Shown: positions 1 to 29,310 of the stretch, piece after piece
Layout of the letters: each line of letters opens with the position of its first letter
Numbering within the stretch: the first letter of the stretch is position 1
Assembly (NCBI GenBank): GCA_039189765.1
Contig: JBCCYL010000005.1
Coordinates: 1-64,000, forward strand
Source: Cyanobacteria bacterium P01_F01_bin.150
GTDB lineage: Bacteria; Cyanobacteriota; Cyanobacteriia; CAKZMO01
Length of the DNA stretch: 64,000 nt
Direction: 5' to 3'
Translations under genes and position numbers: made by a program
Notes under the pieces: model-generated
Database searches by the model: none
What the model saw: only the letters and a program-made list of their open reading frames with translations
What the model was told of the DNA's origin: nothing

Positions 1-141
1 CCCCACCCTACAGCCGCCTCTGGCGTGTGCCCGTAAGGGACGCGTTCCGCTTGGGGTTGGCCGGTCACCATCCGTATTTTTGGCCAAGTGGAAGGGGCTA
101 CCGCACGCGCGCAATGTAGCCTAGCGTGACTCCAAAAGGAC

Positions 142-1542: not shown

Positions 1543-1617
1543 CGGCGACGCGGCCGGCAAGCTGCCCCTGGACAAGGGCACGCCGCGCGCCATCTCTCGC
1601 CCCAACGGGAGAGACAC

Positions 1618-2838
1618 ATGACAGCATGGATCGCAACGCGCGCGGCAGGTCTGGCCCGCATGGAAGAGTTCGGCCCGCGCATGGGCCGCCGCTATGCCAG
1701 CGGGCGGAATTATGACCGGGGGCCCGGCAAGCACAGCGCTGTGTCGGGACTGTCTCCGTACCTGCGGCGGCGGCTGATCACCGAGCGGGAGGTGGTGGGC
1801 CTCGCGCTTGATCAGCACGGGCCCGAAGGCGCCGAAAAGTTCATCCAAGAGGTCGTTTGGCGCGGCTATTTCAAAGGCTGGCTGGAACGCCGCCCGTCCA
1901 TTTGGGCTGACTATCGCCGCGGGCTTGATGCGGACCGGGCCGCGCTTGACCGGGATCGGCGCTTGCGCAAGGCCGTGGAGGCGGCGGAGGCCGGGCAAAG
2001 CGGGCTCGACTGCGTGGATGGTTGGGCGCGGGAGCTGGTGGAGACCGGATACCTGCACAACCACGCGCGCATGTGGTTCGCCTCAATTTGGGTGTTCACG
2101 CTGGAATTGCCCTGGCGGCTCGGCGCAGATTTCTTCCTGCGGCATCTGTTGGACGGGGATCCGGCATCAAACACGTTGGGTTGGCGTTGGGTGGCGGGGC
2201 TGCACACCCGCGGCAAGGCTTACCAGGCGAAGGCCTGGAATATAGCGAAGTTCACCGACGGGCGGGTTCACCCGCGCGACGCGGATCTGGCCGCGGGGAT
2301 CCGGCCCTTGGAGTTTACCGAGCCCGAGGGCCTGCCACAGGTTGCACCGCTTCGCGCGCCCGTGGCGCCAGCGACGGGCACGCCCACGGCGCTGTTGATT
2401 GCGGAAGACGAGTGCAAGCTCGAAGACTTCCAGCCGGAGCGGCTGGACCTCGTCGGTGCGGCAACGCTCGCGGCGAGCCACCTGCGGTCCGACGCGCCGG
2501 TGGGCGACGGTGTGGTCGACTTCGAGACGAGCGCTCTTGCCGACGCGGCCGAACGTTTGGGGCTAGAGGCGACGGCGATGCGCGCCGGAAGCCCGGCTGA
2601 CCTGGTGCGCTGGGCCAAAGGCCTCGGCGCGGCGCAGATCGCCAGCGGCTATGTGCCCACGGGCCCGCTTCGCGACTGGCTGGACGAGGCCGCGCCGGCC
2701 CTGGCCGAGGCTGGCATCACGCTGACCGAATGGCGCCGCGACTGGGACGCGCAGGTCTGGCCGCACGCCACCGCCGGGTTCTTCAAGGTCAAAAAGATCA
2801 TCCCGCGGCTGATTCACCAATTGGACCTCGCCGCATGA
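1618..2838 (+). CDS. Photolyase-family protein with N-terminal FAD-binding domain (NewPHL-like inverted domain order)
   Basis: FAD-binding motifs lie in the N-terminal half (VSGLSPYLR, FIQEVVWRGY, ETGYLHNHARMWFAS, LLDGDPASNTLGWRWVAG). An alpha/beta-like segment follows (TALLIAEDEC...) rather than preceding them. Confidence 0.8.
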   Translation: MTAWIATRAAGLARMEEFGPRMGRRYASGRNYDRGPGKHSAVSGLSPYLRRRLITEREVVGLALDQHGPEGAEKFIQEVVWRGYFKGWLERRPSIWADYRRGLDADRAALDRDRRLRKAVEAAEAGQSGLDCVDGWARELVETGYLHNHARMWFASIWVFTLELPWRLGADFFLRHLLDGDPASNTLGWRWVAGLHTRGKAYQAKAWNIAKFTDGRVHPRDADLAAGIRPLEFTEPEGLPQVAPLRAPVAPATGTPTALLIAEDECKLEDFQPERLDLVGAATLAASHLRSDAPVGDGVVDFETSALADAAERLGLEATAMRAGSPADLVRWAKGLGAAQIASGYVPTGPLRDWLDEAAPALAEAGITLTEWRRDWDAQVWPHATAGFFKVKKIIPRLIHQLDLAA

Positions 2839-2958
2839 CCGACGCCACGCTCGCAACCGAAAACGTTCAGGACTACCCGCGCCCGCCAGCGCTCGAACCG
2901 GTGCCGCAGCGGATCGAAGTGCGCTTCGGCGGGTCGGTCATCGTGGACACGACCCGCG
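2835..2958 (+). pseudogene. DUF427-family protein, 5' fragment cut at the junction
   Basis: ATGA overlap with the photolyase stop. Translates MTDATLATENVQDYPRPPALEPVPQRIEVRFGGSVIVDTTR; ENVQDYPRPP is the typical DUF427 N-terminus. It then runs into unrelated repeat DNA. Confidence 0.8.
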
Positions 2959-4683
2959 TTTCCTCTCTCGGGAGGGGCTAGGGGTGGGTTTCCCCTCTCG
3001 GGAGGGGCTAGGGGTGGGTTTCCCCTCTCGGGAGGGGCTAGGGGTGGGTTTCCCCTCTCGGGAGGGGCTAGGGGTGGGTTCTTCTGCCTTCATCCTTCTG
3101 CCTTCTGCCTTTAATTCATCCTTCTGCCTTCTGCCTTCTGCCTTTAACAACACGTCCGTAGGGTTTTGAAGCACGTCATCTAAACGGCTAAGGGTGCCTT
3201 CTAATTCTTGAACATCGCCGCCGAGTTTAATAAGCTGCTGGACGGGTTGGGTAAACTGCTGCATTAGGGACTGAAAAGCCACCAGTTCACCGATGGTTAA
3301 GACTCCGTCCATGACTCGTAGTCCACCGATTACCAGCAGCAGCATGGTACTGATTCCGGTTAGGAACGAAGGCACCAGGGAAATACGTTGGGCGAGTCCA
3401 TCCATTTCTTGGCGGGCATTGAGGGATTTGGCGTAGTATCCGGCCCATTTGGTAAAAAAGTCTGATTCTAGACCTGAGGCTTTTAGGGTCTCCATGCTTT
3501 GCAGTCCGGCGATCGCCACCCCACTTACCTTTCCCTGCTCCTGCATTAGGCGAGTATTAGTATCCGATCGCTGCCGGGCCACCCACTGCATTGCCACTAA
3601 GTTAATGGCGATAAAGGCAATGCCAATCAGAGTGAGAACCCAGTCATAGCACAGCATTACCGCACCGTAGAAGAGGACCATTACGCCTGAAATGGTGGTG
3701 GTGGCCAGTTCCCCAGACAGGAGGTTGGCCAGCCGATCGTTGAGCTTGATACGGTTGCTAATTTCCCCGGCAAAACGCTGGTCGTAGAAGCTAACGGGCA
3801 GGTGCAAAATATGCCAGATAAACTGACTGGACATGCTCATGGAGAGCTTAATTTTAAGCTGGCGCAGCACCTGAAGCTGGAGGCGCGTTAGTAATCCCGT
3901 CAGTCCTGCCACGGCAATCATTGCCAGCACTAGGGGGCGCAGCCATCCGTCTCGACCTTGGATTAGCACCTGGTCAATAAAAATTTTGGAGAACGCGGGC
4001 ATGGCCAATCCTGGCAGCACCAGTAAAAAGCCCACTATCAGGCAAAAAATCAGAGAGGGCATAGACCCCTGTAAGCGTTCCTGTAGTGCCTTAACCACGC
4101 TGGGCTTTGCACCACCTGTTTCAAAGGCTGGACTGGGTTGGAAGGTGAGCACCACCCCCGTAAATGCCTCGCCAAATTCACTCCAGGTGACGCTGCGGGG
4201 TCCGGTGGCGGGATCGTTGAGAAATACCCGGCCTCGATGGAACCCTTCCACCACTAGGAAATGATTAAAGTTCCAAAACACAATAAAGGGGCGAGGCAGG
4301 CGTTCCAATTGGTTCAAGGGGGCTTTAAATCCTTTGGAAATTAAGTTGTAACGCTTGCCCGCATTCAGCACGTTGGAAGCTTTACTGCCATCTCGGGAGA
4401 TGCCGCAGGCTTGGCGCAATTCCGCTAGGGCAACAACTCGCTGGTGGTAGCCCAAAATCATTCCCAAGGAGGCCGCTCCACATTCCACCGCTTCCATTTG
4501 TAAAAGCGTCGGCGTGCGGCGGATATCTGGGGGCTTTATCCAGTCTTGGAGGAGAGGTGGCAGTTTGGGATGGAGCCAGTCCCGTATCGGGACCCAGCGG
4601 TTGTTTATGGGGTCTTTTATATAGGCTTTTATATAGGCTTGGAGCGTGGTGTAAAGGGAGGCGATCGCGTTAGCTTGGCTCAT
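2959..4683 (-). CDS. NHLP/bacteriocin-type peptidase C39-ABC transporter; ATPase domain missing (truncated at junction)
   Basis: C39 motifs QMEAVECGAASL, NHFLV and LNDPA are followed by an ABC transmembrane domain ending RLDDVL. Repeat-encoded linker follows, with no Walker A/B before the junction. Confidence 0.9.
2961..3080. repeat. 30-bp tandem repeat x4 (TCCCCTCTCGGGAGGGGCTAGGGGTGGGTT), REP-like palindromic unit
   Basis: Four head-to-tail copies read directly, the first with one mismatch. Internal hairpin CCCCTC..GAGGGG. The same unit forms the inverted arms at 54303-54396. Confidence 0.95.
3082..3142. repeat. Heptamer STRR-type repeats (TTCTGCC / GGCAGAA), in frame in the ABC linker (KAEGRRQK)
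   Basis: TTCTGCC/TTCATCC units are directly visible. The same heptamer occurs at 52843-52884. Confidence 0.9.
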
Positions 4684-4684
4684 T

Positions 4685-6184
4685 TTAGCTCACCCCCAAA
4701 AGGGTCTTTAGGAAGGGCAATACGTAGGTAATCGGCTGGCGTTTGTCTACGGTAATTTGAACTTCGGTCGTAGTGCCAGGACTAAAACACTGATGATCCG
4801 GGCCATTGGATGATGACCAGTTGTAGCGATAGGCGCAGTCGGAGGTGGAAGTGGAAGTGTCTAGTGATGTGGCTGGAACGGTCGTCAATTGCGCCTGGAT
4901 GGCCACCTGGGAGCCTTCACCCAAAATACCGGGGAGAACATTGGGATGTCCCACCAGGTCAATGGCCTCCTGTTGCGATACGGCAAAAGCGGAAACCTCG
5001 GTCACTCGACCGATAATGCCGCCATATTCCTCCCGCTTCACCGTGGTGGGTGTTACCTGAACATCCATATCTTCAAAAATTTTTCTGCCGTCCGACGCGG
5101 GTAAAAAGGCCACACTCATGGGGGGGTGATCCTGGTCATAGACGCCAATGGTGCCAATGGCCATTCCCGGTTCAATTTGTTGCCCCAGTTGAACGCTCAG
5201 CTCTAGAACTTGCCCGTCACTGGTACTAACAATGTCTTGATTGCGCGATAGCTCCAGGGTCAGTTGGGCAATGGTACGTTCTGTCTCCTGAATCTCCTGG
5301 GTACGGTTAGCGGTAGCCAAGGCATCCTGCTCCGTTTGACTGGCGATCCGGCTGTCTAATTCCTGGAGTTCCCCCTGGATTTGGGCAATGCGGTTGAGAT
5401 TTTGAGCATAGTCTCGCTGGGCATTGACATCATCCACCGCTAGCTGACTCAATTGCGTCTCCACCTGACGGATCTGCTGCTCCACATCTCGGTACTCCTG
5501 TTCCGCCTGAAGCAGTTCGTCCTGGGAAATAACGATGGCTTCGGCCTCTGTATTGGCCTGCTGGCGGAGCTGCCAGCGATCGCGATGGGTGCCCATTAAT
5601 CCCGTCAGTGTCTCCAAGCGACTTTCCAACGCCGATTGCTCCTGCAGGATCGAGGCTTGGGCTTTAGTTTGCAAAATCGGGGTCAGGGCTTGCTCCGCCG
5701 CCAGCTCCTGCTGTAAACTGCGCCGCTGTTGGTCGATGGCGCGTTGCTCCGAGCGTCCCCGCATCGTCTGGAGCCGGTCCGCCTCCTGCTGCTGGTCTTG
5801 GAGTTGGGATAGCTTTAACTGGGCCAGGGCCAACTGCTGCTCCAACTCCCGCTGATCCAACCGGGCAATCACTTGTCCTGGTTCAACTGCGTCGCCTTCT
5901 GCCACTAGAATCTCCTGAACTTGTCCTGATGTGGCAGATTGTAGCGGTGACACCTGGCTGGGATAGACTAAAATCCCCTGGCCCTCAACCCGCACGGGGA
6001 TTTGGCCTATTATGCTCCACGCGACCCCAGCGGTTACCAGTCCTCCTAGGGCTAAAAGGGAAATCCACCGTTTGGGATTAACGATTTGAATTAGCTGATC
6101 CAACCGTTCGGGGGAGGCATTATGGTCTAGGGCATCCTGACGGAAAATCGTATTTTTTGGGGGGGCTTTTTCTTGGGTAATCAT
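4685..6184 (-). CDS. NHLP bacteriocin system secretion protein (HlyD-family membrane fusion protein)
   Basis: N-terminus IFRQDAL..SPERLDQL, one TM helix, lipoyl-like halves flanking a long coiled coil, and VKREEYGGIIGRV, YNWSSSNGP and QPITYVLPFL motifs. Confidence 0.9.
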   Translation of the reverse strand: MITQEKAPPKNTIFRQDALDHNASPERLDQLIQIVNPKRWISLLALGGLVTAGVAWSIIGQIPVRVEGQGILVYPSQVSPLQSATSGQVQEILVAEGDAVEPGQVIARLDQRELEQQLALAQLKLSQLQDQQQEADRLQTMRGRSEQRAIDQQRRSLQQELAAEQALTPILQTKAQASILQEQSALESRLETLTGLMGTHRDRWQLRQQANTEAEAIVISQDELLQAEQEYRDVEQQIRQVETQLSQLAVDDVNAQRDYAQNLNRIAQIQGELQELDSRIASQTEQDALATANRTQEIQETERTIAQLTLELSRNQDIVSTSDGQVLELSVQLGQQIEPGMAIGTIGVYDQDHPPMSVAFLPASDGRKIFEDMDVQVTPTTVKREEYGGIIGRVTEVSAFAVSQQEAIDLVGHPNVLPGILGEGSQVAIQAQLTTVPATSLDTSTSTSDCAYRYNWSSSNGPDHQCFSPGTTTEVQITVDKRQPITYVLPFLKTLLGVS

Positions 6185-6187
6185 GGG

Positions 6188-7225
6188 CTATTGTATCCTT
6201 GCTGTAACCTGGGCCTGCTGCAATCGCTTTACCATCCACTCAAATCGAGCTTCGGCAAGGGATAGCTTCGCCAGCAGTTCGTGGTCTAATTCCTGAATTC
6301 CGAGGCTAAATCCGATGCGCTCACCAATACGCTCCAAAATCTGCTGTTGCTTATTGGCCAACAACAACCCGAGGACGCGATAAATGCGAGCGGCAAAGTC
6401 TGCATCGTAAAGGAGGCGAGCCATTAGCCGCCATCGCGGAATTGACAACACCGTCGTGTCTCGAATCGCACGGGCCGTAAATAACGGTGGATACGTATCA
6501 ACAAATATCCCTTCTCCAACTACACTGCCCTGGGTCAACCGGGCAAATTCCTTTTCCTCCACCGCCACTCCGCCAAAGGCGGCAACCATTGGAGCCTGTA
6601 CCTGTTCTGGAGCCGAGAGGGCGATCGCCCCATTTAGCACAATATGAAACCCATCCAACGGTCGTCCCCGCTGCACTAGGATGCTGCCCGGTTCCAGGGA
6701 GTGGCGATCGCCCACGCTAATCAACCAGTCCAAGTCCCCATCCTCTAGCGCCCCAAATACTGTTACCGCCTCTTTTAGCTGAAGCTGAGTCAGCAGGTCC
6801 AAACTATAGCCACAGCGCTGGGCGATTCCTTCCAGGCGATTGTTCAGGAGCTGAAGAGTGAACTGGTAAAAGCGAACGGCAAAATCAGCATCTTCTGCTA
6901 CATAAGCGGTCAGGGCCTCTTTGGGAATAGATAGCAGCGTAGACGGCACCACTGCTCTAACCCTGGCTGGAGGCAAAAAATGAGGCAGTCCTGGCAAGAA
7001 TCCCCAGATCTCGCCACTGCTAATCCGACTAATCTCTAGGGCTTGGTCGGCATTTTCTGGATTAAGTAACTCGACCGCCAGCCCTCCTTCCAACACAAGA
7101 TAAAGCTGGTGGGGACTCTCGTCTGCTTCAATAATGACGGTGTGGGGCGCGATCGTCTGTGAGGTTCCGCGAGCTAGGAACCAATCAATGTCCTGACTGC
7201 AAAACTCATCTAAAATAGTTTTCAT
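6188..7225 (-). CDS. Tandem cyclic-nucleotide-binding domain protein (bacteriocin-transport associated)
   Basis: Two cNMP-type repeats (LYLVLEGGL..ISSGEIWG..VRA; FHIVLNGAI..LTQGSVVGE..ARAIRDT) with no HTH. Sits between the precursors and HlyD. Confidence 0.85.
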   Translation of the reverse strand: MKTILDEFCSQDIDWFLARGTSQTIAPHTVIIEADESPHQLYLVLEGGLAVELLNPENADQALEISRISSGEIWGFLPGLPHFLPPARVRAVVPSTLLSIPKEALTAYVAEDADFAVRFYQFTLQLLNNRLEGIAQRCGYSLDLLTQLQLKEAVTVFGALEDGDLDWLISVGDRHSLEPGSILVQRGRPLDGFHIVLNGAIALSAPEQVQAPMVAAFGGVAVEEKEFARLTQGSVVGEGIFVDTYPPLFTARAIRDTTVLSIPRWRLMARLLYDADFAARIYRVLGLLLANKQQQILERIGERIGFSLGIQELDHELLAKLSLAEARFEWMVKRLQQAQVTARIQ

Positions 7226-8258: not shown

Positions 8259-8800
8259 TCATCGTCCCCTTTGAGAGCTCCTAGTCTCATTGAAATCCTT
8301 AGCAAGCACAGCTTCTGTCACCTCCAACGTTAAGAAATCTGCTTGCATGTCTGCTGTGCTAAGCGCACTCTTAACAAGTTCTACTAGATTTCCTCTAATA
8401 ATCTGCTCAACTGACACGTTAACAGAAATGTAATCGAGTTCCATGCCTTCCTTCAGCCAACTTCTGAGTTGTTTACATGCTGACACTAAGACAAACTGAC
8501 CAATTTCAGAGATTAGTCCTGTCATTTCAGCTATTGAAATCAGTTCTTCGACAAACACGCCAGATAACCCTGGATGATCGCAACGAAACAAAGCTTCCGT
8601 ACCGATAGTCTGCTTAGATGCTAAATCTACCAGTGGCTGATAGTGGATCTTAACCAATCCATCACGTAATGATTCACGAAGACAATTCTCTGCGCGTATT
8701 GTTTTGTCATTTAGCTGAGCGTCCAGTTCTCTTGTAGTCCCTTCGACTCTTACAATACGCCAGTTTTTGCCTTCTTCAAGATACTCAAGCAAATCAACCG
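8259..8800 (-). pseudogene. EAL (c-di-GMP phosphodiesterase) domain fragment
   Basis: HYQPLVDL, GTEALFR, ISVNVS and LEVTE are present. The ORF stops before the DDFG half of the domain and has no convincing N-terminus. Confidence 0.75.
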
Positions 8801-8802
8801 GG

Positions 8803-8925
8803 ATTGTTTTCGTGGCGGGGTTTATCGGTCTGGACCTTGCTACCATTACAGTGTTTCCGCTGTTATTTGATCAAGTCGCTCAGCTTTCTCAGCGGTTGCC
8901 CGATTGGGTCGATGCGAGTAAATAG
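8803..8925 (+). pseudogene. Internal fragment resembling an AI-2E family transporter
   Basis: Manual translation IVFVAGFIGLDLATITVFPLLFDQVAQLSQRLPDWVDASK* matches the TM + 'P.L..Q...L..RLP.W' pattern of AI-2E proteins. No start codon. Confidence 0.5.
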
Positions 8926-9502: not shown

Positions 9503-10972
9503 ATGTCAGAACTATCATCCTATTGGACTTGGATCAGCCTCGATCGAGTTGGAGGATATCATAAACTGGTCCTTTCAGACCCCCAGACTGTGGTGAAGAC
9601 TCAGGTCTTTCCAATGGTAAACAAGACAGATTCTGATATCGAATCTCAGCTTCCATTGACGACTCAACCCCAAGGCCATCGGCAGATCCAAAAACAGTTG
9701 CTCGAGCATTGGCAACTGCACCCTCAGGAAAGGGGCGCACGTGATGCCCTGTGTTGCTATATTTCCCATAAACTGGAACGATGCTGTACGGATATCGCTC
9801 AGGCGTTTGGGCAACGGAGTGGGTTTAGCCGTGATGATTTGCTGCCTTGTGTGCTAATGGAACGGCGATCGCTCCACCAACTCTCCCCAGGGTTTCCGGT
9901 TGATTGGGCATCGGACAAACCTCTGCCTCTGGTGCTGAAAATTCTCAATACCTTCGATCCGAGCAAAGGTAGTTTATCCACTTGGACCCAGCAGCTCTTT
10001 AAGAGTGATCGCTTAATTAAACAATTTTTGTTAGACCACGGCATTGAACAGGTGACCGATTGGTTTTTATTGAACAATGCGACGCCGGGACGGCTACAGC
10101 GTATGTTTGAGACGCTAAATTTATCCCAGGCTGAACTAAATGCGGCTGTGGTGCTGTTGAACGTCTATCATTGCCATTATCGGGATGTTGTCTTAGCGCA
10201 ACGGAAACCTGGGTCCAGACGTCCCTTTTCACCGCCGTCGCCAGAGCAGTTACAAGAAATAGTCAACCACTTAGAGCAGCCGTTCACGACCGACACCGTG
10301 TTAGAGGCGCTACAGCAATTGGCCAATTGGATCCGGCAGGCCCAGTTAATGCGTCGCGGTCGATTTCAGTCTGCCTCAAATTTTCAGGATGTGGGGAACG
10401 CAACGGATGTAATGGCTCAAGATAGCACCGCAGAGTCGTCAGAGGATGAGTCGATTATGGCGTTGGTGCGATCGGGTCAAGGGATATTTCACGAGTGTTT
10501 ACAGGGGGCGATCGCCACTGTTATCAGTCATCGCCTCGTGCTGCTTCAACCCAAAGCCCAAACCCCTAAGTCCATTGCCAAAGCTCAGCAGAAGCAAGCG
10601 CGTTTACTCAATGCCCTGGCCCTATTTCACTGTGAGGGCAAAACCATGGCAGACATTGCCACTGCCCTAGATTTGACCGATCAGCCCCGTGTGAGCAAAC
10701 TTTTGGCGTTAAAGGCGTTACGGGCAGATATTGGCCGCAATTTGTTGTATGACCTACAGCGGAAGTTGGCCCCGTTGGCCGCATCATCCGGTGACGTAAA
10801 GACCCTCAAAGAGACGGAACAACGCATCCAAGAGGTGGTATCCCAAGCCTTTGAGTCCTTGGACGCCGACGCCCGGCGTGAAGCCCATGATGGGTTACAC
10901 CGAGGGGGACAAAGTCTCCTTGCTCAAGCTGTCTGTCAAGATGTTCAATCTCGCATGAGGCCAGCAAGATGA
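9503..10972 (+). CDS. Divergent sigma-70-like / HTH protein of cyanobacterial DUF1822 operons
   Basis: ATG at 9503 follows AAAAGGA. TFDPSKGSLSTW resembles sigma region 2.3, and LFHCEGKTMADIATALDLTDQPRVSKLL resembles the region 4 HTH. ATGA-coupled to DUF1822. Confidence 0.6.
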   Translation: MSELSSYWTWISLDRVGGYHKLVLSDPQTVVKTQVFPMVNKTDSDIESQLPLTTQPQGHRQIQKQLLEHWQLHPQERGARDALCCYISHKLERCCTDIAQAFGQRSGFSRDDLLPCVLMERRSLHQLSPGFPVDWASDKPLPLVLKILNTFDPSKGSLSTWTQQLFKSDRLIKQFLLDHGIEQVTDWFLLNNATPGRLQRMFETLNLSQAELNAAVVLLNVYHCHYRDVVLAQRKPGSRRPFSPPSPEQLQEIVNHLEQPFTTDTVLEALQQLANWIRQAQLMRRGRFQSASNFQDVGNATDVMAQDSTAESSEDESIMALVRSGQGIFHECLQGAIATVISHRLVLLQPKAQTPKSIAKAQQKQARLLNALALFHCEGKTMADIATALDLTDQPRVSKLLALKALRADIGRNLLYDLQRKLAPLAASSGDVKTLKETEQRIQEVVSQAFESLDADARREAHDGLHRGGQSLLAQAVCQDVQSRMRPAR

Positions 10973-12135
10973 GTAGTATTGACACCTGGATTGGGAATGA
11001 CTGGAGCCAAACCAATACCAGTCTGGAGTGGGTGGAGTTAATTCCTGAGCATTGTGAGCGAGCCTATGCTTTGAGTTGGTCTGGCGATCGCCCTTGGTCT
11101 CTCTATCAACAGGCATTTGCCTTATTCGGGTTTGCAACCTGGCTGCACCAACGGGCACCAGAGATTGACGGCCCTATTGAGTCACTGCTGTCGGCTATTT
11201 CGGTCTCTGAGCTATCTTCTGGCTTATGGGTAGGAGGAACCGTAATCGTATCGGTGGGGGACTTTCAAGTGTGTTTGTTGCCCGGTCCCAGTCTTAGTGA
11301 CGATCAGGTGGCGGTGCCCAGTGAGGTGCTTGAATCGTTCCAAAATGGTTGTCATTTTTATGTGTGGGTCGTGGTCAATCTTGAGTTAGAACAGGTGGCT
11401 GTCCGGTCTTTTCAACACTACGGAACCTTACGCCAAGCATGTGCATCAATCAACCCTGGACCAGATGGTACGTATTGGATCGATGAGGAGTATTTTGAAC
11501 CCAATCCGGATCAGCTCCTATTGCAATTAACGTGTTTGGCTCCAGAAGCGATTCCTCTGCCTGTTGTGAATGGCATCGAAGCCCCAGAGACCGCCTCTTT
11601 AGTCCCCGCATCTAGTGCACCATCCTCCATTGATCAAGCTACGGTGATTCCATTGGAAACGTCTGCTGAACCGCAAACGGCATGGGGAAGTCAATTGTCA
11701 AGTTGGGTCCAAGGAACCATTGATACCAGCTGGCAAACAGTGGAAGCGCTCTTTGGTTCGACACCGCTGCACTATGAGTGGCGCGTTTCCTCTGATGCAG
11801 CGGTGGCCCCTATTGTGCGCGGCAAGGTGATAGAGGCTCTCCCGTTACCTTCTGATAAACCCATCGTACTGTTGGTGGAGGTGTTGCCTGCTGCCGATCC
11901 TTCAGCAACAGACTTGAGTATTACCCTGAAAGTTAGCTCAGCGGATGGTCAACAATTTCTACCCGCCAGTCTAGAGTTAATGGTGCTGGATGAGGTGGGA
12001 GAATCAGTAATGCAAGTGCAGGCGCGGGATGAAAACCGCATGTTGGAATTGGGGTTTTATGCGGCAAGGGGCGATCGCTTTTCCGTTAGGCTCAACCTGC
12101 ACGATACGATTGTGGATGAGTACTTTACAGTGTAG
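10969..12135 (+). CDS. DUF1822 family protein
   Basis: N-terminal W.LYQQA.A..GF..WL, HFYVWVVV, QLSSWVQG...WQTVEAL, and a C-terminal Ig-like part (LPASLELMVLDE.GE...QAR...GDRFSVRL...EYFTV). Confidence 0.85.
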   Translation: MSSIDTWIGNDWSQTNTSLEWVELIPEHCERAYALSWSGDRPWSLYQQAFALFGFATWLHQRAPEIDGPIESLLSAISVSELSSGLWVGGTVIVSVGDFQVCLLPGPSLSDDQVAVPSEVLESFQNGCHFYVWVVVNLELEQVAVRSFQHYGTLRQACASINPGPDGTYWIDEEYFEPNPDQLLLQLTCLAPEAIPLPVVNGIEAPETASLVPASSAPSSIDQATVIPLETSAEPQTAWGSQLSSWVQGTIDTSWQTVEALFGSTPLHYEWRVSSDAAVAPIVRGKVIEALPLPSDKPIVLLVEVLPAADPSATDLSITLKVSSADGQQFLPASLELMVLDEVGESVMQVQARDENRMLELGFYAARGDRFSVRLNLHDTIVDEYFTV

Positions 12136-12153
12136 GACTGTTTATTCCCTCCT

Positions 12154-14670
12154 ATGGCTAAACGTGCTGTTGTTGAATTAAGGGGAAACTTACAGAAGCA
12201 GGGATTCTACGTCACGCTTCGCATTGAGACTATTTATAGAGCCGAGCATTCAGCCTCAACCATTGTGGAGGGACGATTACCCCCATCCTTAGCGCTCTAC
12301 GAAACGTTGACCCACTGGCAAAAAGACTACCGTTGGCTATCTGTTCCGAGTCGAGCTTTAAAGCCCCATACGATTCGTACAGATGGTCGAATCTTGCCCC
12401 TGGATGCCTGTGTACAATCAGCCCAGAGGCTTGTGTCGTGTTTCCAACAGTGGTTGAGCGCGGATACCTTTCGTCCCATTGACTTTCAGTTGCGTCAAGC
12501 GTTTATGCCAGACGATGCGATTGATGTGGTGATTCGGACCTCGGATGAAGCGGCCCAGGCGTTACCGTGGCATCAATGGGGCTTTATTGAAACCTATCGC
12601 TATGCGGAAGTGAGTATTAGCAGTGCGCCGATTTCTAAGCCAGGCCAAATAACATCCCCACCCCAGGAAATCAATATTCTAGCGGTGTTGGGCGATCGCA
12701 CCAATATTGATATCGAGAGCGATCGCCGTTTGCTCAATCAATTGCCTGGTGCCTCTGTGGAGGTGTTGGTAGAACCGTCCCATGTGGTCCTAAACGATAG
12801 GTTATATGACCGTCCTTGGCATATTCTCTTTTTTGCTGGACACAGTGAAACGGGAGCCAGCGGCCAGGGGATTCTGCGGTTAAATTCGACGACGACTCTG
12901 ACCATTGAAGAGGTACGGTATGCGCTGCAACGGGCGATTGGGCGGGGGCTACAACTGGCGATTTTTAATTCCTGCGATGGCTTAGGGCTAGCGCGGGCGC
13001 TGGACGCATTACAACTCCCTCAAATGATTGTGATGCGAGAAGCGGTTCCCGATCTGGTTGCACAGCAGTTTCTTCGCTATTTTTTGGAGTCCCTCTCCCA
13101 AGGAGCGGACTTACCTGTGGCAGTCAGACAAGCGCGGGAGCGGCTACAGGGCTTGGAAAAGACCTATCCCTGTGCCAGTTGGTTACCCATTGTCTATCAA
13201 CAGCTTCAGCCTTCTGTACTGAAATGGCCCCAACCGAACCAGCCAATAAACCAGCCAATAAGCCAGTCAATGAGCCGACCGGATAATGGTCGTGTTGCTC
13301 AAGATAATCAGCCTGAGCGATCGCCTATAACCATGGAAAAAGCTGATCAGCTTAAGCGATCGCCTGGAACCACGGAAAACGATCAGCAACCGGAAAATCA
13401 GAAACCGTCCTTTCTCTGGCCGTTCCTTAAACATATCGGCATCACCCTAGCCGTATCCAGCGTGGTGATGGTGGGAGAGGCTCTAGGAATGTTACAGCGG
13501 TGGGAGTTGCAGACCTTTGATCGATTGATGGAGGTACGGCCTGGGCAAGGAATTGCGGATGAGCGTATCTTGGTGATTGCCGTAGGCGAGGATGATATTC
13601 AGTATCAGGATAACCAGGGCTATGACCGCACCGATTCTTTAGCGGATGAAGCGTTGTTGACTCTTTTGGAAAAAATTTCTCCCCATCGGCCCACCGTGAT
13701 CGGTCTAGATATAATTCGGACCGTTCCGTTGAATGATAATCTCCAGGGTTATCTAGAGCAGCAACCACTGGTGGCCATTTGCAGCATCAAAAACATTACC
13801 AATGCGATTACCAGTGTGCCACCGCCGCCCCAATATCCGGCTGAATACCTGGGATTCAACAATATTCCTCTAGATACGGATGGAGTGATTCGTCGGCAAT
13901 TGCTGGGGATGGCCTCTAAGGATGTCCTTTGCCCTGCGCAGGAATCCTTTAGCTTTCATATTGCCCGGACATACTTGAGGCTAGCCCATGATATTGAAAT
14001 GGAGTGGGTGACCGACAATAAGGGAGACAGCCAAGTTCAGCTTGGCGCTCAAGTGTTTACGTCGTTGCGATCGCGAGCTGGTGGGTATCAACTTTCAGCG
14101 GGAGATATCGGCGGGAAACAGGTGTTAGTCAATTACCGTGCGGCCCATCCTGAGCAGGTTTCGCTAAAGGATATCTTGAGTGGTGCATTGGACACCCAAC
14201 TGCCGGAATTAGTTGGCGATCGCATCATCCTTATCGGCTTGGTTCACCATAGTACGGACAATCATCTTATCCCCCATAGTCTGGGACGGAGTACTCAGAC
14301 CCTTCCTGGGGTGATCGTGCAAGCCCATATGGCGAGTCAGGTCATCAGTGCAACTTTTGGGGAACGCCCATTAATCCAAGGATGGCCGGAATGGGCCGAT
14401 CGGCTGTGGATTGTCGGATGGGCGATCGCGGGTACAGTGATTGGCGTCGTTGCTGCTTCAGGTCAACCCTCTAACCCGCCACCGGAGAAAGCAGAAGGGC
14501 GATCGCTCTGGAAAACGATCGGGATTGTACTGATGGGCCTGGGTGGGGTGGGAAGTAGTGGAGTATTGCTGTTGGTACAGGGATGGTGGGTACCCAGTGT
14601 AGCAGCGGCGATCGCTCTGTGTGGAACAGCAACGGTTAGCTATTGTTTTCGCCCACCCCTGGATGAATAA
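12154..14670 (+). CDS. CHAT (caspase-like protease)-CHASE2 transmembrane receptor
   Basis: Cytoplasmic CHAT domain with His/Cys dyad (FAGHS, IFNSCDG), then a TM helix, a CHASE2 domain (ELQTFDRLM, VIGLDIIR, DTDGVIRR, PGVIVQAHMASQ) and three C-terminal TM helices. Confidence 0.9.
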   Translation: MAKRAVVELRGNLQKQGFYVTLRIETIYRAEHSASTIVEGRLPPSLALYETLTHWQKDYRWLSVPSRALKPHTIRTDGRILPLDACVQSAQRLVSCFQQWLSADTFRPIDFQLRQAFMPDDAIDVVIRTSDEAAQALPWHQWGFIETYRYAEVSISSAPISKPGQITSPPQEINILAVLGDRTNIDIESDRRLLNQLPGASVEVLVEPSHVVLNDRLYDRPWHILFFAGHSETGASGQGILRLNSTTTLTIEEVRYALQRAIGRGLQLAIFNSCDGLGLARALDALQLPQMIVMREAVPDLVAQQFLRYFLESLSQGADLPVAVRQARERLQGLEKTYPCASWLPIVYQQLQPSVLKWPQPNQPINQPISQSMSRPDNGRVAQDNQPERSPITMEKADQLKRSPGTTENDQQPENQKPSFLWPFLKHIGITLAVSSVVMVGEALGMLQRWELQTFDRLMEVRPGQGIADERILVIAVGEDDIQYQDNQGYDRTDSLADEALLTLLEKISPHRPTVIGLDIIRTVPLNDNLQGYLEQQPLVAICSIKNITNAITSVPPPPQYPAEYLGFNNIPLDTDGVIRRQLLGMASKDVLCPAQESFSFHIARTYLRLAHDIEMEWVTDNKGDSQVQLGAQVFTSLRSRAGGYQLSAGDIGGKQVLVNYRAAHPEQVSLKDILSGALDTQLPELVGDRIILIGLVHHSTDNHLIPHSLGRSTQTLPGVIVQAHMASQVISATFGERPLIQGWPEWADRLWIVGWAIAGTVIGVVAASGQPSNPPPEKAEGRSLWKTIGIVLMGLGGVGSSGVLLLVQGWWVPSVAAAIALCGTATVSYCFRPPLDE

Positions 14671-14711
14671 TAAGAACACAGCCTGCTGCTATTGCCCTCT
14701 GATGAAAGCCT

Positions 14712-15497
14712 ATGAACCGTCGTCCTTCCCCTCCTATGATTTTCTCAAATCGCCTAAAACACAAGGTTTTACCCATCATCTTGACTGGATGGATGGTCAC
14801 CATGGGTTTGCATGTCCTTGCCCCACAGGCTCAGGCAAATCTAAAGAATGAGGCTTCAGATGGAGGATGGGGGACTATGCATACGGGCAGTCAAACCACG
14901 GCGGGGGGACGGGATTACTGTCCTGAAGTGGATTTAGGGGCGATCGCCCTTATTCCTGCAACCCATTGGGGCATTGCTACAACTCAAACGCCTACGCTCT
15001 GGTTCTATCTGCCCTACACATCGGACCAAATGGCCTATGGCGAGTTTCTCCTGCTTGATGATCAGGGATTTGATCAGCTTGAGCCAATTCAGTTTACCGG
15101 AGCGGCAACCGCTGGCTGGGTGAGCATTACGCTTCCCGAGCTGGAGCTGCCGTTAGTGGATGGAACGGATTATAATTGGGCGATTCAAATCTACTGCCGT
15201 CCCAACCAAGTCAGCCCCCTAACCCTGGAAGGTTGGCTCCAGGTCACTTCCTCCAGTCCTTCAGTCACCGCTGCGCTTGACGCTGGGACTGTTCCAGCGT
15301 ATCAGGTGTATTGGAATGAAAGACTGTGGTTCGACGCAGTACACGACCTGATGCAGCAGCGCCTTGCCAATCCTGACAATAAAGAATTGACGACTCAGTG
15401 GTTAAGTTTGTTAAAAGAGGGTGGGGTTAGAGTGAATTCAGAGGATACTCAGGCCATTCTTGAATCTTCACCCATTATTGGACCTGTATCTAGGTAG
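14712..15497 (+). CDS. DUF928 domain protein (exported)
   Basis: Signal-peptide-like N-terminus, plus AGGRDYC, PTLWFYLPY, YNWAIQIYC, GWLQ, LWFDAV and W.SLL..G motifs. Confidence 0.85.
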   Translation: MNRRPSPPMIFSNRLKHKVLPIILTGWMVTMGLHVLAPQAQANLKNEASDGGWGTMHTGSQTTAGGRDYCPEVDLGAIALIPATHWGIATTQTPTLWFYLPYTSDQMAYGEFLLLDDQGFDQLEPIQFTGAATAGWVSITLPELELPLVDGTDYNWAIQIYCRPNQVSPLTLEGWLQVTSSSPSVTAALDAGTVPAYQVYWNERLWFDAVHDLMQQRLANPDNKELTTQWLSLLKEGGVRVNSEDTQAILESSPIIGPVSR

Positions 15498-15722
15498 TAA
15501 AAGCAGGGCGCGGGGTGCCCCACAACAGCGCCTTAAATATAGAGGCCAAACGGGGCAATGAAGTAAAGCCCGTCTGGACAATCAAAAAATGTTGCGTCTG
15601 AATTTGTACATAACCTCATTGACTTTAGGATAGGAGGCTATGGACAGGCGAGATGCTCACTTGCGCTCCCTACAATATTTATTTTCTTTACACCATAGAC
15701 CCCATTACTGAGGCCCAAGCTT

Positions 15723-18700
15723 ATGACTACCTTCACTGGAACTCTTCACGCCGTGTGGGAATCTGTTGACCAACAGCTCCAAGTATTTCTAAATGATGCT
15801 GATTTATTGGGAAAGCTCTCTTTAATTTTTGGGCCTAGTATTGATCATCAAAGTGCGATCGCCTTAATTCAAACCCTGATTGCAGACGATGGGCAACCGG
15901 AGGTAGAAGTGGTGTCTGCGGCCACGATCAATGGAGCGAATGGCGCATTTGCAGAGACAACAGGAGTAGTCTACTTAGCTGAAGAGTTTCTGGACAATAA
16001 TTCTTTAGACACAATCACTGCGGTGTTTTTAGAAGAGTTGGGTCACTACCTTGATGGGAGGTTAAATCAGGAGGATGCCCTGGGGGATGAAGGGGCATTA
16101 TTTTCAAGATTGGTAAGGGGCGACGACCTTACGCTTGAACAGATTCAAGCGTTAAAAAGTGAGAATGATTGGGCGATCGCCCAAATTCATGGCGAAGCAA
16201 TTGCGATCGAACAGGATATCAATTTTACCTACCAAGCAGTACTCCCAGGGAACCTGTCCACCATTATTGAAGCTGCTGGCACTGCATTAGAGGATTTACT
16301 CAATATCAGTGAACCTATTGAAGTAGAGGTAAGGCGGGAGAATTTCCAGGGGAATAGGACGTTGGCGAGTGCGACTCCCTCAGACTATAAAATTAACTTT
16401 GTCGATGAAGATGGGACGTTAATCGACGATTCTTCCTATCCCATTGCGTTGGCCAATCAGATGTCTGGTATTGATATCGAGGTGGGGGCACCAGACATAG
16501 AGCTAAAGATTAATGATGCGTTAACGGGAATAACGGGTGAGACGCTCAATAACCAAAAAATTTATTATGGACTCAACGATGGAGCCGCCGCCGACCAATA
16601 CGATTTTTTCGGCACTGTGTTACATGAATTAATCCATGGCCTCGGATTTGTATCCCTGATCAACCAAGATGGAACTTGGCTCAATGAGCCTAATATATAT
16701 AAATTTGATCAATTTATATATGACACAAGCACATCCACACGAATTGCAGATATCGATGAAGCGGTTAATCGAGAACCTAGTTTAGAAAGTAATTCCATCA
16801 CGTTTGGTTCGCCAACAGATCTTATTTACGCAAGAGCAAATAATAGCGGCAATGCGCCTCACCTTTATGCGCCCAATCCATGGGAAGAGGGTAGCAGCAT
16901 TGGTCACCTAGAAAACGATTCAATCATGGTCCCGGAACGCCCTTCAGGGGCAGGACATCGGACTGTTGATCCGGTTACCCTCGGCATCCTTAAAGATCTG
17001 GGGTGGGACATCAATGTCCCTGATGTCGATAATATTCAGCTTGAAGTCGCTGAGAAGAATGAAGGGACGGGGGAGGTTACGTTTACGGTTACGTTGTCTG
17101 AACCGAGTGATCAAGACATCACGCTCCAGTATCAAACCGTTGAAGACGAAACCTTAGGGAATGATACGGCCAAAAGTGGATTTCTGGCCTGGATAACCGG
17201 GACAAGGGACTATAAGCGACCCAAAGGCAACCAAAAGACGATTACGATTCCCGCTGGAGCAACATCCTCTGGCGATATCACCATTGAGTTGATTGATGAT
17301 AATCGGGAAGAGCCAGATGAGACCTTCAAAATCCAACTTTTTAATCCGGCAAACGCGCTGATTTCTCCTGATACTCTCAACCAGGGCATCGTTACAATCC
17401 AGGACAATGATGGCAATGCGCCCATCCAAGCCCAAGCCCAGGCACCTGCGACCCATGAAACAAATGCCGTTGTTCGCAGTGCTGTGACCCATTCCTCAAA
17501 TAACGCCTTTGCGGCCACTACAGATGCTAACGGCATTGCGGCGCTCAAGACTGGGTTGGGAGCAGTTTTAGCCAATGTTGGCGATACGTTGACACTGATT
17601 GAAGACGGCATTAGTGAACTGCTGGCGTTTCAAACGGGTGTCGATGAAACCCTTGGAATGACCGCATTGCCCTTGTTGGGGCAGTTCAGTGAATTAGGAG
17701 CTGCACCGTTGGCGTTTGTGGCAGAGATTCAAGCGGCGATTTTGGATGAGTTGGAGGCGATCGCCACAGATCTGCTCCAACCGCTCTACGATACGGTTGA
17801 GGATTTGTTGGGAGATACGGTTGATTTTTCCACTATCACGGATGACTCAATCAGTGACTTATTGGAGGAGTTGCTGAGAGTGGTAACCGCAGTGGATCTG
17901 ACCAATCCTGATCCAGTGCAGGTGGCTGAGGATTTTTTGGCGGAGATTAAGATCGTTTTGCTCGATATCTTTCCCTCCATTGACGCCACTAATCCTGACC
18001 TAGACGAAACCATCGAAGATCTGGTGATTGGGTTGAGCGACTACATTACTGATGAACTGAATGACCTTTTGCTAAAACCGTTGGCCCCTATTCGTCAGGC
18101 TATGGTTAATGCATTGGGCGATGGCCCCGATGGTCTTGGAGTTTTGAAGGATGTGAATAGTGATGGGACTATCGATATCGATGATATTGGGGTCAATATT
18201 ACCGATATTGAACAACTCCAGGATCTAGAAAATCTCGATTTGCAATTTGAGCTGAGATTGGGCAAGGACGAAAATTTCAACCAAGCGATTGCGGCTGACA
18301 TTGGATTTCCAGGATTGGGGTTGGATGTGGATGGCACGGCCCAAGCTGGATTTTTATTGGATTGGGAATTGGGGTTTGGCATCAATCAGGATGATGGGTT
18401 CTACTTTGATACCTCATTTGACAGTGAATTGGACATTGGCGTAGGGGCCGCATTGACGGCTGAAGGCGTAGACCCCCTGACGGTTGAAGGCGAACTGGGG
18501 TTTTTAAAGCTAAACGTGACCGACAGTATGGAAAACCCCAGCACGCTAGGCGCAAGCTTTACCGTCGATATCACTGACCCCAACGAGGATGGCAAGCTGA
18601 CCTTAGCGGAGATTTTGCAGGTGGGATTTGCCCCCACCCTCGATTTAGACGCCAATATTAATCTGGACCTGGAGACAAGTTTGGGCGAGGGGGCAATCTT

Positions 18701-21700
18701 TCCATCGCTGGAAACTGACTTCAGCCTATCTTGGGATGTTTCAGAGGCCCTGGACCCCAGTAATCTCCAGAATCTGGGCAGTAAACCCACCGTTGAATTT
18801 GGCGATGTCACGTTAGATTTAGGCAAGTTTATTAGCACCGTTGCCGATCCGGTTTTGGATACGATGCAAACGATTCTGACGCCGTTGGAACCAATTGTCG
18901 ATGTTCTTACCGAGGATATTAACTTAGGATTTACCCAGTTCAGTTTGCTCGATATCGCCGCAGAGGCCGGTTTTATTGATGAAGAGACGGTAGAGTTCGT
19001 GCTGGCATTGGAGCAACTGGGTAATCTGATCGATTTAATTGATTCGAATACGAGCAATGAGATAGTCAAAATCAACTTAGGCGGGTTTGATTTTGGTTCG
19101 ATTGATTTACGCGCTCCGAACTTTGATATTAGCCAGGTGACGCCAGAGTTCCCGTCTGGGTTCAATCTTCAGGATGAAATTCCCGAAAATAGTTTTGAAT
19201 CCACGTTCGTTGCCACGGCGGAAACGATTCCGGGCGGCGGCCTCCAGTTTCCATTGCTGACCGATCCGACCCAAGCGTTCAACCTTCTGTTGGGAAACGA
19301 TGTAACTATTTTTGCCTATGATTTGCCCTCATTTCTATTCACCTTGAGCCAAAACTTTTCCATCCCCGTTATCGGTCCCTTATTTATTGATTTCAATGCG
19401 TCGGTGGGGGCATCAGCGGGCATCAGTGGCTTTGGCTATGACACTACTGGACTGCGGCAGTTTGCTGATGGGCTTGATGGGATTCGGGGAACGGCGGATG
19501 ACTTTAGCGATGTCAGTCAAATTTTCAATGGGTTCTATGTGAGCGATCGCGACAATGCCGACGGCACCGGATCAGAGTATCCAGAAGTCAGCCTGACGGG
19601 GGGATTAGAAGCCTCGGCCCAGTTAAACGTGGGCATTGGCAGTGTCGGGGCTGGGGGTGGCCTCTATGCGGGTGTCGATTTTGACCTCAATGATCCCAAC
19701 GATGACGGCAAGGTGCGGGCCGATGAATTTGCCAGTCTGTTGGCGGACCCCCTCTGCATGTTTGATGTCAGTGGGGAGCTAACGGCCCGGTTGTTTGCCT
19801 ATCTCAAACTGGGTGTGGGCATTTTTTCGGCTACTAAGCGAGTGGATAGCCCGGACTTAACGCTGTTGGACTTTAACCACGGGTGTGACGGTAGCCGCGA
19901 TAGTAACGACCCCAATCCTCCTGCCATCGCTGTGAACAATGGCGGGGTTTTAGAGCTACAGACGGGGGGAGGCGACGACGACTTTGTGGTTAGCCTCGAC
20001 CCAGACAATAGCAATACCTTAAGAGTGACGGCCTTTGATGCCCGAAAAGATTTTTCAGCGGCGGCGATTACCAAAATTGAGGGAGATGGTAGAGGCGGCG
20101 ATGACTTTATCAGTGTCGATGAGGCCGTGCTAATTCCGGTTGAATTCTCTGGCAGTGGTGGGGACGATCGCCTGATTGGTGGCGGTAGAAACGATATGCT
20201 GTTTGGCAATCGAGGGGTCGATCGTCTAGAAGGGGGACTGGGCAACGATACCCTAGAGGGCGGTGATCAGGATGATATTTTAATCGGTGGCAAAGGTCGG
20301 GATAGCCTCCACGGTGGGAATGGTGAAGATACCGCCAGCTATATTACGGCGGACGCTGGGATTCGGGTCAACCTCAACGACACGACTCGGAACACTGGGG
20401 ACGCAAACGGCGATACATACACCAGAATCGAACAGATCGAAGGGTCGTTTTATGATGACGTTCTGATTGGCGATGATACGAAAAATGGCCTAGTGGGGCT
20501 TGGGGGTAATGACGAAATCGATGGTAACGGCGGCAAGGATGTGCTGGATGGGGGAGCGGGAGACGATACCCTCAGAGGCGGTGACGACAAGGATACCCTA
20601 GCAGGCGGAGCAGGCGCTGATTTCCTTCAAGGGGGCGGCGATAAGGACACCGCCACCTACACCGATTCGACTAGGGGTATTGTCTTAGATCTGCCAAACC
20701 CGGATCAATCTACTGGCCACGCGGCAGGGGATACCTTTGAAAATATCGAAGTGTATGAAGGGTCCTACTACAACGACACCATCAAAGGAAACAATCAGGA
20801 TGATGAGTTCTTGGGATTGGATGGCAATGACATTTTATTCGGTGGGGGTGGGGCTGATACCTTAGACGGAGGCGAAGGCTATGATATTGCCAGCTATAAC
20901 GACTCCCCCGACGGTCTGACGGTCAACCTGGATAAGCTGAATGACTCCACGGGGTTTGCGGCAGGGGATACCTACAAGGACATCGAAGAAATTCAAGGGT
21001 CCTCTTTTCGGGACACGTTGATTGGTGACGGCAAAGACAATATCCTGGATGGACTGGAGGGAAACAATACCCTGATTGGCGGCAATGGGGCCGATGATTT
21101 AAGGGCGGGAACGGGCAATGATTCCTACGAACTCAAAGGCAAAAAATCGGATGGTGGCAGCATTATTCGCGATCGCGGCGGCAACAACGATAGCTTGACC
21201 CTGGACAAGGTGGAGTTGACCCTGGCGAATCCCAGCAGTGGAACGGTGGGGTTGGGGCGACGCAACAATGATTTGATTATTGATATTAACAAAGATGGAG
21301 AGATCAAGCGGGCCGACGATCTCTCCATCGAGAACTTCTTTGCATCCCGCAATTTCGCGGTGGATGATGTCACGCTCCTGGAAGGCGATAGCGGCACCCA
21401 GCAGGCGGTCTTTACAATTACCGCAGATGGGGCCAATTCGGGCGCAGGCATTGGCTTTATTGAGCGGTTGGATAACCTGTCGGGAACCAGCGTGATTCAA
21501 TTCTTTAATACGGTCAAGGTCGAGTATGAAACGGTTGACGGCACCGCCACGGTCGCCGATCAGGATTATCAAGCGGCCAGTGGCACCCTAAGCTTTGCGT
21601 CCGATGAAACCGAGAAGACGGTGGTGGTGGATATCGTTGGTGACTTAACGGAAGAACTCAATGAGTCATTTACCCTGAGCTTGAGTTCCGAGGACAGCAA

Positions 21701-29300: not shown

Positions 29301-29310
29301 TAATTCTTAC

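Follow-up and report, generated by a model that had tools for sequence, protein, structure and literature searches.

What do four tightly spaced genes of a cyanobacterium, which encode a sigma-like protein, a DUF1822 protein, a membrane protein with CHAT and CHASE2 domains and a DUF928 protein, accomplish together? The genes, here called g1 to g4, lie in a stretch of 64,000 nucleotides from Cyanobacteria bacterium P01_F01_bin.150 (assembly GCA_039189765.1, contig JBCCYL010000005.1, positions 1 to 64,000), which was analyzed as a whole and is referred to as the window. All four are encoded on the plus strand. A 4-bp ATGA overlap links g1 to g2, 18 bp separate g2 from g3, and 41 bp separate g3 from g4, so that the open reading frame (ORF) coordinates bear out the layout given in a first-pass annotation of this DNA. 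A fifth gene, g5, follows after a gap of 225 bp. For g1, an alternative TTG start exists at 9482; homologues begin at the ATG (9503). The features are the following:

9503-10972, plus strand: g1, 489 residues, predicted diverged sigma-70-family protein, similar to the extracytoplasmic function (ECF) type (ORF call)
10969-12135, plus strand: g2, DUF1822 protein (Pfam)
12154-14670, plus strand: g3, CHAT-CHASE2 membrane receptor-protease (Pfam)
14712-15497, plus strand: g4, DUF928 protein with signal-peptide-like start (Pfam)
15607-15632, plus strand: promoter-like bipartite motif, TACATAACCTC-N11-GATA (pattern and position weight matrix (PWM) scans)
15723-27761, plus strand: g5, exoprotein of 4012 residues, a candidate target gene and not a conserved member of the module

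Our preferred answer, which we regard as quite possible if still short of probable, is that the four genes act as a proteolytic switch, gated by a signal, that controls a dedicated sigma-70-family factor. In the resting state, DUF1822 would bind the sigma-like factor and keep it inactive. Once CHASE2 and periplasmic DUF928 jointly perceive an extracytoplasmic cue, the cytoplasmic CHAT protease would be activated and would then cleave DUF1822, with its invariant Arg62 and a low-confidence interdomain linker as candidate sites. The freed factor would direct RNA polymerase to promoters of the form T[AG]CATA[AG][CG]-N14-16-GATA. Such promoters would serve g5 in the window, and elsewhere the module's own operon and further genes for caspase-like proteases.

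Conservation of the arrangement is striking. An alignment of 10 g1 homologues (A2) retrieved 40 related loci, 716,462 bp in total, from contigs representing one genome per species; their ORFs were called by script and scanned with Pfam. All 40 loci are cyanobacterial, from Nostocales, Moorena, Lyngbya-like genomes, Roseofilum, Symploca, Spirulinaceae and others. DUF1822 is encoded by the ORF immediately downstream of the g1 homologue in 38 of 38 loci (two further loci end without downstream DNA), with a distance of -55 to +14 bp in 33 of the 38. CHAT and CHASE2 are encoded by the next ORF in 33 of 36 loci and are present, intact or split, in 35 of the 36: a binding protein and a histidine kinase are inserted before the gene in one locus (L005), the gene is split in two in another (L028), and L009 is without it. 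In the fourth ORF, Pfam recognizes DUF928 at E≤1e-3 for 19 of 35 loci. Started from g4 of the window, jackhmmer detects 32 ORFs, spread over 31 loci, and tblastn adds two loci (L013 and L015), so that DUF928 accompanies CHAT-CHASE2 in 33 of the 35; the two loci that miss it end at or soon after g3. The recurrence of the four-gene arrangement in 40 loci from many genera is far beyond chance, and the conserved order anticipated for these genes stands.

Many copies of the module are plasmid-borne. Peptidase_C14 genes flank it in 11 loci, TPR-CHAT genes lie on one or both sides in many, and TIR-, AAA- and WD40-type neighbours occur near related modules. These surroundings speak for a system that is chiefly concerned with conflict or programmed death, in which an invader or damage cue would set off a cascade of caspase-like proteases (TPR-CHAT proteins and orthocaspases), transcription would only amplify the response, and the link to g5 would be incidental. 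The available parts of Kaur, Iyer, Burroughs and Aravind (eLife 2021, PMC8195603) indeed place such systems among counter-invader, apoptosis-like ones. However, the sensor of the module faces the periplasm and not the cytoplasm, and the protease HetF, an experimentally studied analogue described in the available parts of PMC9457339 and PMC7377430, acts in development and division. We therefore consider a primary role in conflict improbable.

The identity of g1 is central to the proposed switch, and direct searches give little indication of it. The protein matches no family in Pfam or NCBIfam, and a Pfam scan of 19 members of its family yields just one weak Sigma70_r3 match and one weak r4_2 match. 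Profiles of 19 and 142 sequences match no sigma factor among PDB sequences; they match a DeoR helix-turn-helix (HTH; 0.076 and 0.011) and DMAP6 (9y6s, 1.9e-4). The family is sizeable: among 1.84 billion representatives, a search gives 694 clusters at E≤1e-3, of which nearly all measure 440-500 residues. With direct searches this weak, what makes the sigma identity convincing is a chain of homology through plasmid-encoded proteins, together with a fold comparison.

The chain runs through Anabaena PCC 7120 (plasmid pCC7120alpha) and Nostoc punctiforme (pNPUN03), where the CHAT-CHASE2 genes adjoin a DUF1822 gene and a gene that RefSeq annotates as 'sigma-70 family RNA polymerase sigma factor'. 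A profile built from 142 sequences of the g1 family (A3), searched against 13 targets with Z set to 1000, matches these two sigma-70 proteins in single colinear alignments, at E 5e-8 for PCC 7120 and 1e-7 for N. punctiforme. Both proteins score above the Pfam cut-offs for Sigma70_r4 and r4_2 (Sigma70_r4 in the PCC 7120 protein: 35.5 bits, cut-off 24.1), and Sigma70_r2 reaches 23.7 bits (cut-off 24) in the PCC 7120 protein and E 0.012 in the N. punctiforme one. In both, the HTH of g1 (FL.AL.LFHC.G.SM..IA) aligns onto region 4, and the segment ILxTFDPxKxxLSTW aligns inside region 2. The TIGR02937 model gives sub-threshold, colinear matches in three of seven g1 relatives, and hhalign places the same two segments, weakly (P 0.026-0.07), on regions 2.2-2.3 and 4.2 of E. 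coli sigma factors. As another possible bridge, the 522-residue 'sigma-70 family' proteins of Nostoc C052/C057 were rejected, as they have no Pfam sigma match and reach only P 0.016 to the g1 profile.

The fold comparison points in the same direction. The AlphaFold2 model of g1 (predicted local distance difference test score 76.6) is all-helical but for a small N-terminal hairpin. When it was compared with the PDB by Foldseek, as the first-pass annotation had proposed, 32 of the 49 listed rows were RNA-polymerase initiation complexes or sigma factors, among them sigma-S, sigma-A, sigma-32 and SigB. The best E-value was 0.015, with none at or below 1e-3, and the alignments covered 350-430 columns with low TM-scores (structural similarity), as would be expected if the domain arrangement differs. 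Feature neighbours of g1 in the ESM Atlas (0.91-0.94) are cyanobacterial clusters of 340-550 residues with Sigma70_r4 in up to 87% of members.

Judging by sequence relationships and the model, we regard g1 as a diverged, ECF-like member of the sigma-70 family that is predicted to bind RNA polymerase. Its chain is extended by roughly 130 residues at the N-terminus and by helices at the C-terminus, and it carries an insertion that separates the sigma2-like from the sigma4-like part; a low-confidence loop (288-315) follows the invariant R278. Region 2.3-like and region 4 HTH motifs had both been claimed for the protein. The region 4 HTH is supported by the alignment of the family profile onto the Sigma70_r4 segment and by the fold, while the region 2 matches are weak. 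Four cysteines (C85, C95, C377 and C478) are shared by all of 19 homologues and are at least 90% conserved in a set of 142. With their positions in the sigma2-like helix, at the beginning of the sigma4-like HTH and in the C-terminal helix, they could provide a metal or redox site that ties those parts together.

With region 2 so weakly matched and only a region-4-type HTH well supported, g1 might also be an ordinary HTH activator or repressor, possibly HetZ-like, that recognizes the motif described below as an operator; the proteolytic logic may still hold in that case. The DeoR-type HTH as best PDB sequence match of g1 fits this idea, and so does HetZ, which is described without a sigma label in the available parts of the HetF literature, yet controls -35-centred DIF1 promoters. 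On the other hand, the fold matches extend over 350-430 columns of whole sigma chains, and the sequence matches run colinearly from the sigma2 part to the sigma4 part. Together with the promoter-like character of the motif, this makes an ordinary HTH regulator unlikely in our view.

For g3, Pfam finds a CHAT domain (PF12770) at residues 201-343 (E 1.4e-12, 48.1 bits, cut-off 24) and a CHASE2 domain (PF05226) at residues 437-761 (E 3.1e-48, 165 bits). All 35 g3 proteins in the alignment retain the His-Cys dyad, H230 in FFAGHS and C274 in FNSC. By hydropathy, a single transmembrane segment (428-447) precedes CHASE2 and three (750-823) follow, a layout that places the N-terminal 427 residues, CHAT included, in the cytoplasm and CHASE2 on the outer side of the membrane. 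The earlier view of g3 as an intact cytoplasmic CHAT protease fused to an extracytoplasmic CHASE2 sensor is thus upheld. The N-terminal approximately 190 residues are strongly conserved, and the linker between CHAT and the first transmembrane segment is poorly conserved. Residues 1-355 have at least 5946 relatives among 8000 scored; the best 120 of them are mostly CHAT+CHASE2 proteins (46-67% identity), and some carry TPR, kinase+CHASE2 or no C-terminal domain. A search for HetF orthology was negative for g3: NCBIfam CellDiv_HetF scores 31 bits against a cut-off of 1200, and in the CHAT part only.

Pfam assigns g4 to DUF928 (E 5.2e-34). Its N-terminus has a hydrophobic stretch that ends in AQA and, by hydropathy and inspection of the sequence, resembles a signal peptide, in agreement with the export predicted before. 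It is likely that g4 is an exported, periplasmic partner of CHASE2. DUF928 is also present in the modules of PCC 7120, A. cylindrica, N. flagelliforme and pNPUN01, and on plasmids it adjoins CHASE2 genes that have AAA-like or TIR cytoplasmic parts as well. One DUF928-centred plasmid locus has no CHASE2 gene within 4.5 kb.

The remaining component, g2, matches Pfam DUF1822 (E 2.5e-32). In its AlphaFold2 model, an alpha+beta N-domain predicted with high confidence (20-200) is joined through a low-confidence stretch (201-280) to a beta-sandwich C-domain (282-388). Foldseek gives generic Ig-like fold matches only, and a search of PDB sequences finds no relative. The designation of DUF1822 as a TPR protein, printed by Kaur et al., is not borne out for g2, in whose model no TPR is seen; TRADD-like_N gives no Pfam match to g2 either. 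The sole invariant Arg of DUF1822 is R62 (33 of 33 sequences), which lies in W-L-x-x-R-x-P, where the window reads Q-R-A-P-E. With DUF1822 clusters set aside, the ESM Atlas places clusters named PatU closest to g2, at 0.83, a value that the tool itself rates as a lead only. As a search anchor, DUF1822 retrieved 3 proteins. On two plasmids of Tolypothrix PCC 7712 (CP063787 and CP063788; L042), two DUF1822 genes adjoin g1 homologues, and a published table of differences between PCC 7712 and PCC 7601, in its available part, lists a 19-bp insertion and a single-nucleotide change in those two genes. We see g2 as the obligate partner gene of g1 and as a candidate sigma-binding or inhibitory protein.

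Within the same module, the cut could fall elsewhere. CHAT may process itself or the sigma-like protein, for instance by removing an N-terminal extension or tether, and DUF1822 would then be an adaptor or scaffold. This includes a pro-sigma model of the kind known from SpoIIGA, SpoIIR and pro-sigma-E. The N-terminal extension of g1, its loop 288-315 and the poorly conserved linker of g3 would all offer room for such a cut, and gene fusions lend it some weight: in one protein (P0170), CHAT with an intact dyad, TRADD-like_N and a complete g1 form one chain, from which the sigma part could be freed only by a cut. In another (P0037), AAA_35 is fused to g1. P0170 also counts in favour of the proposed switch, as does, more weakly, a fusion of g1 with DUF1822 (P0138). 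Autopeptidase activation has moreover been proposed in the available parts of Kaur et al. (PMC8195603). Nevertheless, a cut in CHAT or g1 leaves DUF1822 without a role, although it pairs with g1 in 38 of 38 loci, often with overlapping genes, and the analogue HetF, as far as described in the available sources, cuts the partner PatU3 and not the regulator. For these reasons we find it rather unlikely that the protease acts on itself or on the sigma-like protein, and retain cleavage of DUF1822 in the proposed switch.

K-mer counting on 350 bp upstream of g1 homologues uncovered the motif AAAAAATACATAACCTC-N10-AAAGATATAG, with fixed spacing. A variant, TGCATAGG..AGATAGG, occurs in Moorena, Mastigocoleus and the Calothrix parasitica chromosome, and another, TACATAACTTC..AAACTAGAT, in Lyngbya-like genomes. 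Of 39 loci, 26 have the strict pattern T[AG]CATA[AG][CG]-N14-16-GATA in the 700 bp upstream of g1, and the number rises to 31 when looser -10 forms are admitted. The 40 loci contain 30 further strict matches, of which 27 are intergenic; in ten Markov shuffles, the loci had 0-6 matches in total. Twelve of the further matches are sited at Pfam-confirmed TPR-CHAT or TPR genes, just upstream of the gene or at its 5' edge and typically at a distance of 23-60 bp from the ORF, two precede DUF928 genes, four precede large ORFs without a domain scan, and the rest precede small ORFs. The bipartite form, the fixed spacing, an upstream A-tract and the position 23-60 bp before many ORF starts are promoter-like and argue against an operator for an ordinary HTH regulator. 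Within one locus, g1 and TPR-CHAT promoters have the same variant, and the distribution of the variants agrees with the g1 tree. Shared ancestry can explain the tree pattern, but not the reuse of the motif before different genes.

Two individual sites (L026, 6919-6945, and L030, 12139-12165) precede small ORFs; behind these ORFs comes a radical-SAM gene in L026 and a gene for a LanM-like lanthipeptide synthetase in L030, which hints at peptide-natural-product genes in some regulons. Calothrix parasitica NIES-267 has two copies of the module that differ in their motifs, TACATAAG..GATATA on the plasmid (L034) and TGCATAGG..GATATA on the chromosome (L038), which fits the expectation for paralogous circuits that are insulated from one another. 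In the literature searched we found neither the motif, nor the general pairing of DUF928 with CHASE2, nor the parallel to HetF. The bipartite promoter-like motif linked to g1 operons is new here.

Does the switch control g5, as the first-pass annotation supposed for the adjacent giant exoprotein? In the 64-kb window, the strict pattern has a single match (15607-15632, plus strand), which lies inside the g4-g5 gap, about 90 nt before the g5 start codon. Among half-site PWM matches in the window it also scores best (18.7, a value that 2 of 40 shuffles reach), and it remains the sole intergenic site when one mismatch is allowed in the first box. Its -35-like half is a perfect TACATAACCTC. The core boxes alone match; scans of the window with the full 44-nt PWM and with an A-tract-inclusive half-site gave no match. 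That the sole match in the window falls into the 225-bp gap beside the module is an added argument, to which no computed probability is attached. Pfam finds 8 Calx-beta stretches, RTX repeats, 2 Laminin_G_3 and SdrD_B in g5. As a conserved partner of the module g5 was rejected: no giant Calx-beta/RTX gene adjoins any of the 40 related loci. In PCC 7120, a giant Calx-beta gene does occur near the module, but it is convergent and behind an insertion sequence element. The proposed control of the exoprotein therefore keeps the support of the motif copy, but gene conservation does not extend to g5.

Several observations weigh against the proposed switch. No curated sigma model is reached by g1 in direct search, and the hhalign comparison of its family with five E. 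coli sigma factors is not significant (P 0.03-0.13). Neither the Foldseek nor the PDB sequence matches of g2 include an anti-sigma structure. The fusion of g1 with DUF1822 (P0138) resembles stop-codon read-through and may be an error. The motif was not found upstream of the window's own g1, nor in the plasmid modules of the PCC 7120 type, whose g3 is closest to that of the window. The site before g5 has a weak -10-like half, GGATAGG, at a spacing 1 nt below that of the consensus, and shuffles of the window give a mean of 0.15 strict matches, with at least one match in 14 of 100.

The remainder of the window holds further genes with related domains. Between 32739 and 47827 lie two divergent pairs, each of an exoprotein with TPS domain (two-partner-secretion type) and a TPR-CHAT protein, as identified by Pfam:

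35205-39833 and 32739-35201, minus strand: TPS exoprotein, then TPR-CHAT
40206-44726 and 44744-47827, plus strand: TPS exoprotein, then TPR-CHAT

The intergenic region common to the two pairs has no motif site. On cyanobacterial plasmids, CHAT genes and genes annotated with a 'filamentous hemagglutinin N-terminal domain' adjoin CHASE2/DUF928 genes. Upstream of the module, on the minus strand (2938-7225), are genes for an ABC transporter with C39 peptidase domain, an HlyD-like adaptor and a protein with two cNMP-binding domains; NHLP bacteriocin export genes lie upstream of the module copy on pNPUN01, and an HlyD gene lies nearby in PCC 7120. It is possible that the transporter genes at 2938-7225 are linked to the export of g5. 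Directly upstream of the module, a 195-residue ORF (8259-8846, minus strand) matches just positions 4-133 of the 236-position EAL model and looks like a truncated EAL gene.

Base composition varies along the window. Directly after g5, positions 28000-32000 have a low GC content (0.34-0.37, compared with about 0.5 around them), and three minus-strand ORFs at 28608-31417 match no Pfam family. Positions 1-4000 are GC-rich (0.67 and 0.61), unlike the rest of the window, and contain two ORFs:

142-1542: MATE/MOP-type transporter
1618-2838: ORF that matches only the FAD-binding half of photolyases

At the other end (52909-63830, minus strand), phage-tail-like baseplate genes (Tail_P2_I, Baseplate_J) accompany a gene for a 1507-residue subtilase/FG-GAP/RTX protein; this may be a contractile injection-type cluster.

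To our knowledge, CHAT proteases are among the most expanded protein families of filamentous cyanobacteria, with a substrate known only for HetF. The module provides a complete and conserved candidate circuit of sensor, protease, partner, sigma-like output and predicted promoter code. With copies on plasmids of tractable strains (pCC7120alpha of Anabaena PCC 7120, pNPUN01 and pNPUN03 of Nostoc punctiforme), the signalling output of bacterial caspase homologues becomes directly testable.

How does the module compare with known systems? The first-pass annotation knew of no mechanistic description, which does not hold: in its available parts, the paper by Kaur et al. (PMC8195603) already lists operons with an HTH or ECF sigma gene, DUF1822 and an EACC2-caspase-CHASE2 gene, and proposes protease-triggered transcription with a protease-to-ECF-sigma output. 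The gene order is hence already in print. The EACC2 systems described there combine a constant N-terminal domain and a caspase with variable C-termini, such as CHASE2 with transmembrane helices, and adjoin HTH/ECF-sigma genes and genes annotated as DUF1822, with TPR-caspase genes downstream. Residues 1-355 of g3 are likewise conserved in front of varied C-termini, with g1 and g2 directly upstream, although we match the EACC2 name by description only. In what is available of it, the treatment by Kaur et al. is brief, purely computational and gives no promoter motif; the term DUF928 is absent from the main text and from the 12 searched of the 13 supplement files. DUF1822 is called a TPR or TRADD-N+TPR protein there, whereas the g2 model consists of an alpha+beta domain and a beta-sandwich. 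The module is a member of a system that has been described computationally and is experimentally untouched.

The CRISPR type III triads Csx29-Csx30-RpoE and CalpL-CalpT-CalpS, according to the available parts of their descriptions, follow a similar logic, in which a signal-activated protease (TPR-CHAT in Csx29) cleaves a sigma-binding protein and thereby changes transcription. Their trigger is a target RNA or a cyclic nucleotide inside the cell, whereas the sensor of the module is periplasmic. In the searches made, the partner proteins of these triads showed no relation to those of the module. In the sigma-E pathway with RseA, DegS and RseP, an envelope signal leads through proteolysis to the loss of an anti-sigma factor and to the release of an autoregulated ECF sigma factor; the annotation of rpoE-rseABC was seen in E. 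coli. RseA is a membrane anti-sigma factor that is cut by serine and metallo proteases, whereas the candidate inhibitor of the module is soluble, and its protease is caspase-like and itself the receptor.

The closest experimentally tested analogue is HetF of Anabaena PCC 7120, which cleaves PatU3 to free HetZ. As described in the available parts of PMC9457339 and PMC7377430, HetF has a cytoplasmic CHAT domain, a transmembrane segment and periplasmic TPRs, and it cleaves PatU3 after R117. The genes patU3 and hetZ belong to one operon, PatU3 binds HetZ in its C-terminal part, and HetZ is needed for the DIF1 (-35-centred) promoters. As far as these sources go, the topology of HetF is that of g3, and regulator and inhibitor genes share an operon, with the inhibitor bound to the regulator and cut by CHAT after an Arg. 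The precedent, cited earlier as an example, is therefore closer than a loose one. The cut in Y-R-S-P-E resembles the Q-R-A-P-E of the window's DUF1822, possibly by chance. The periplasmic part of HetF differs, being TPR and not CHASE2, and DUF928 does not figure in the HetF pathway as described there. By analogy, one may speculate, with considerable doubt, that the modules form a large paralogous family of the hetZ-patU-hetF switch. HetZ-type regulators would then be cryptic sigma factors that are held by partners of the PatU/DUF1822 type and released by membrane caspase-like receptors, in many circuits per filamentous cyanobacterium that are kept apart by promoter codes of their own (TACATAAC..GATATA, TGCATAGG..GATAGG and others), and in the window such a circuit would turn on a giant Calx-beta/RTX surface protein when CHASE2 and DUF928 perceive a cue from outside. 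If the link to HetZ and PatU is true, it would also explain how HetZ controls promoters.

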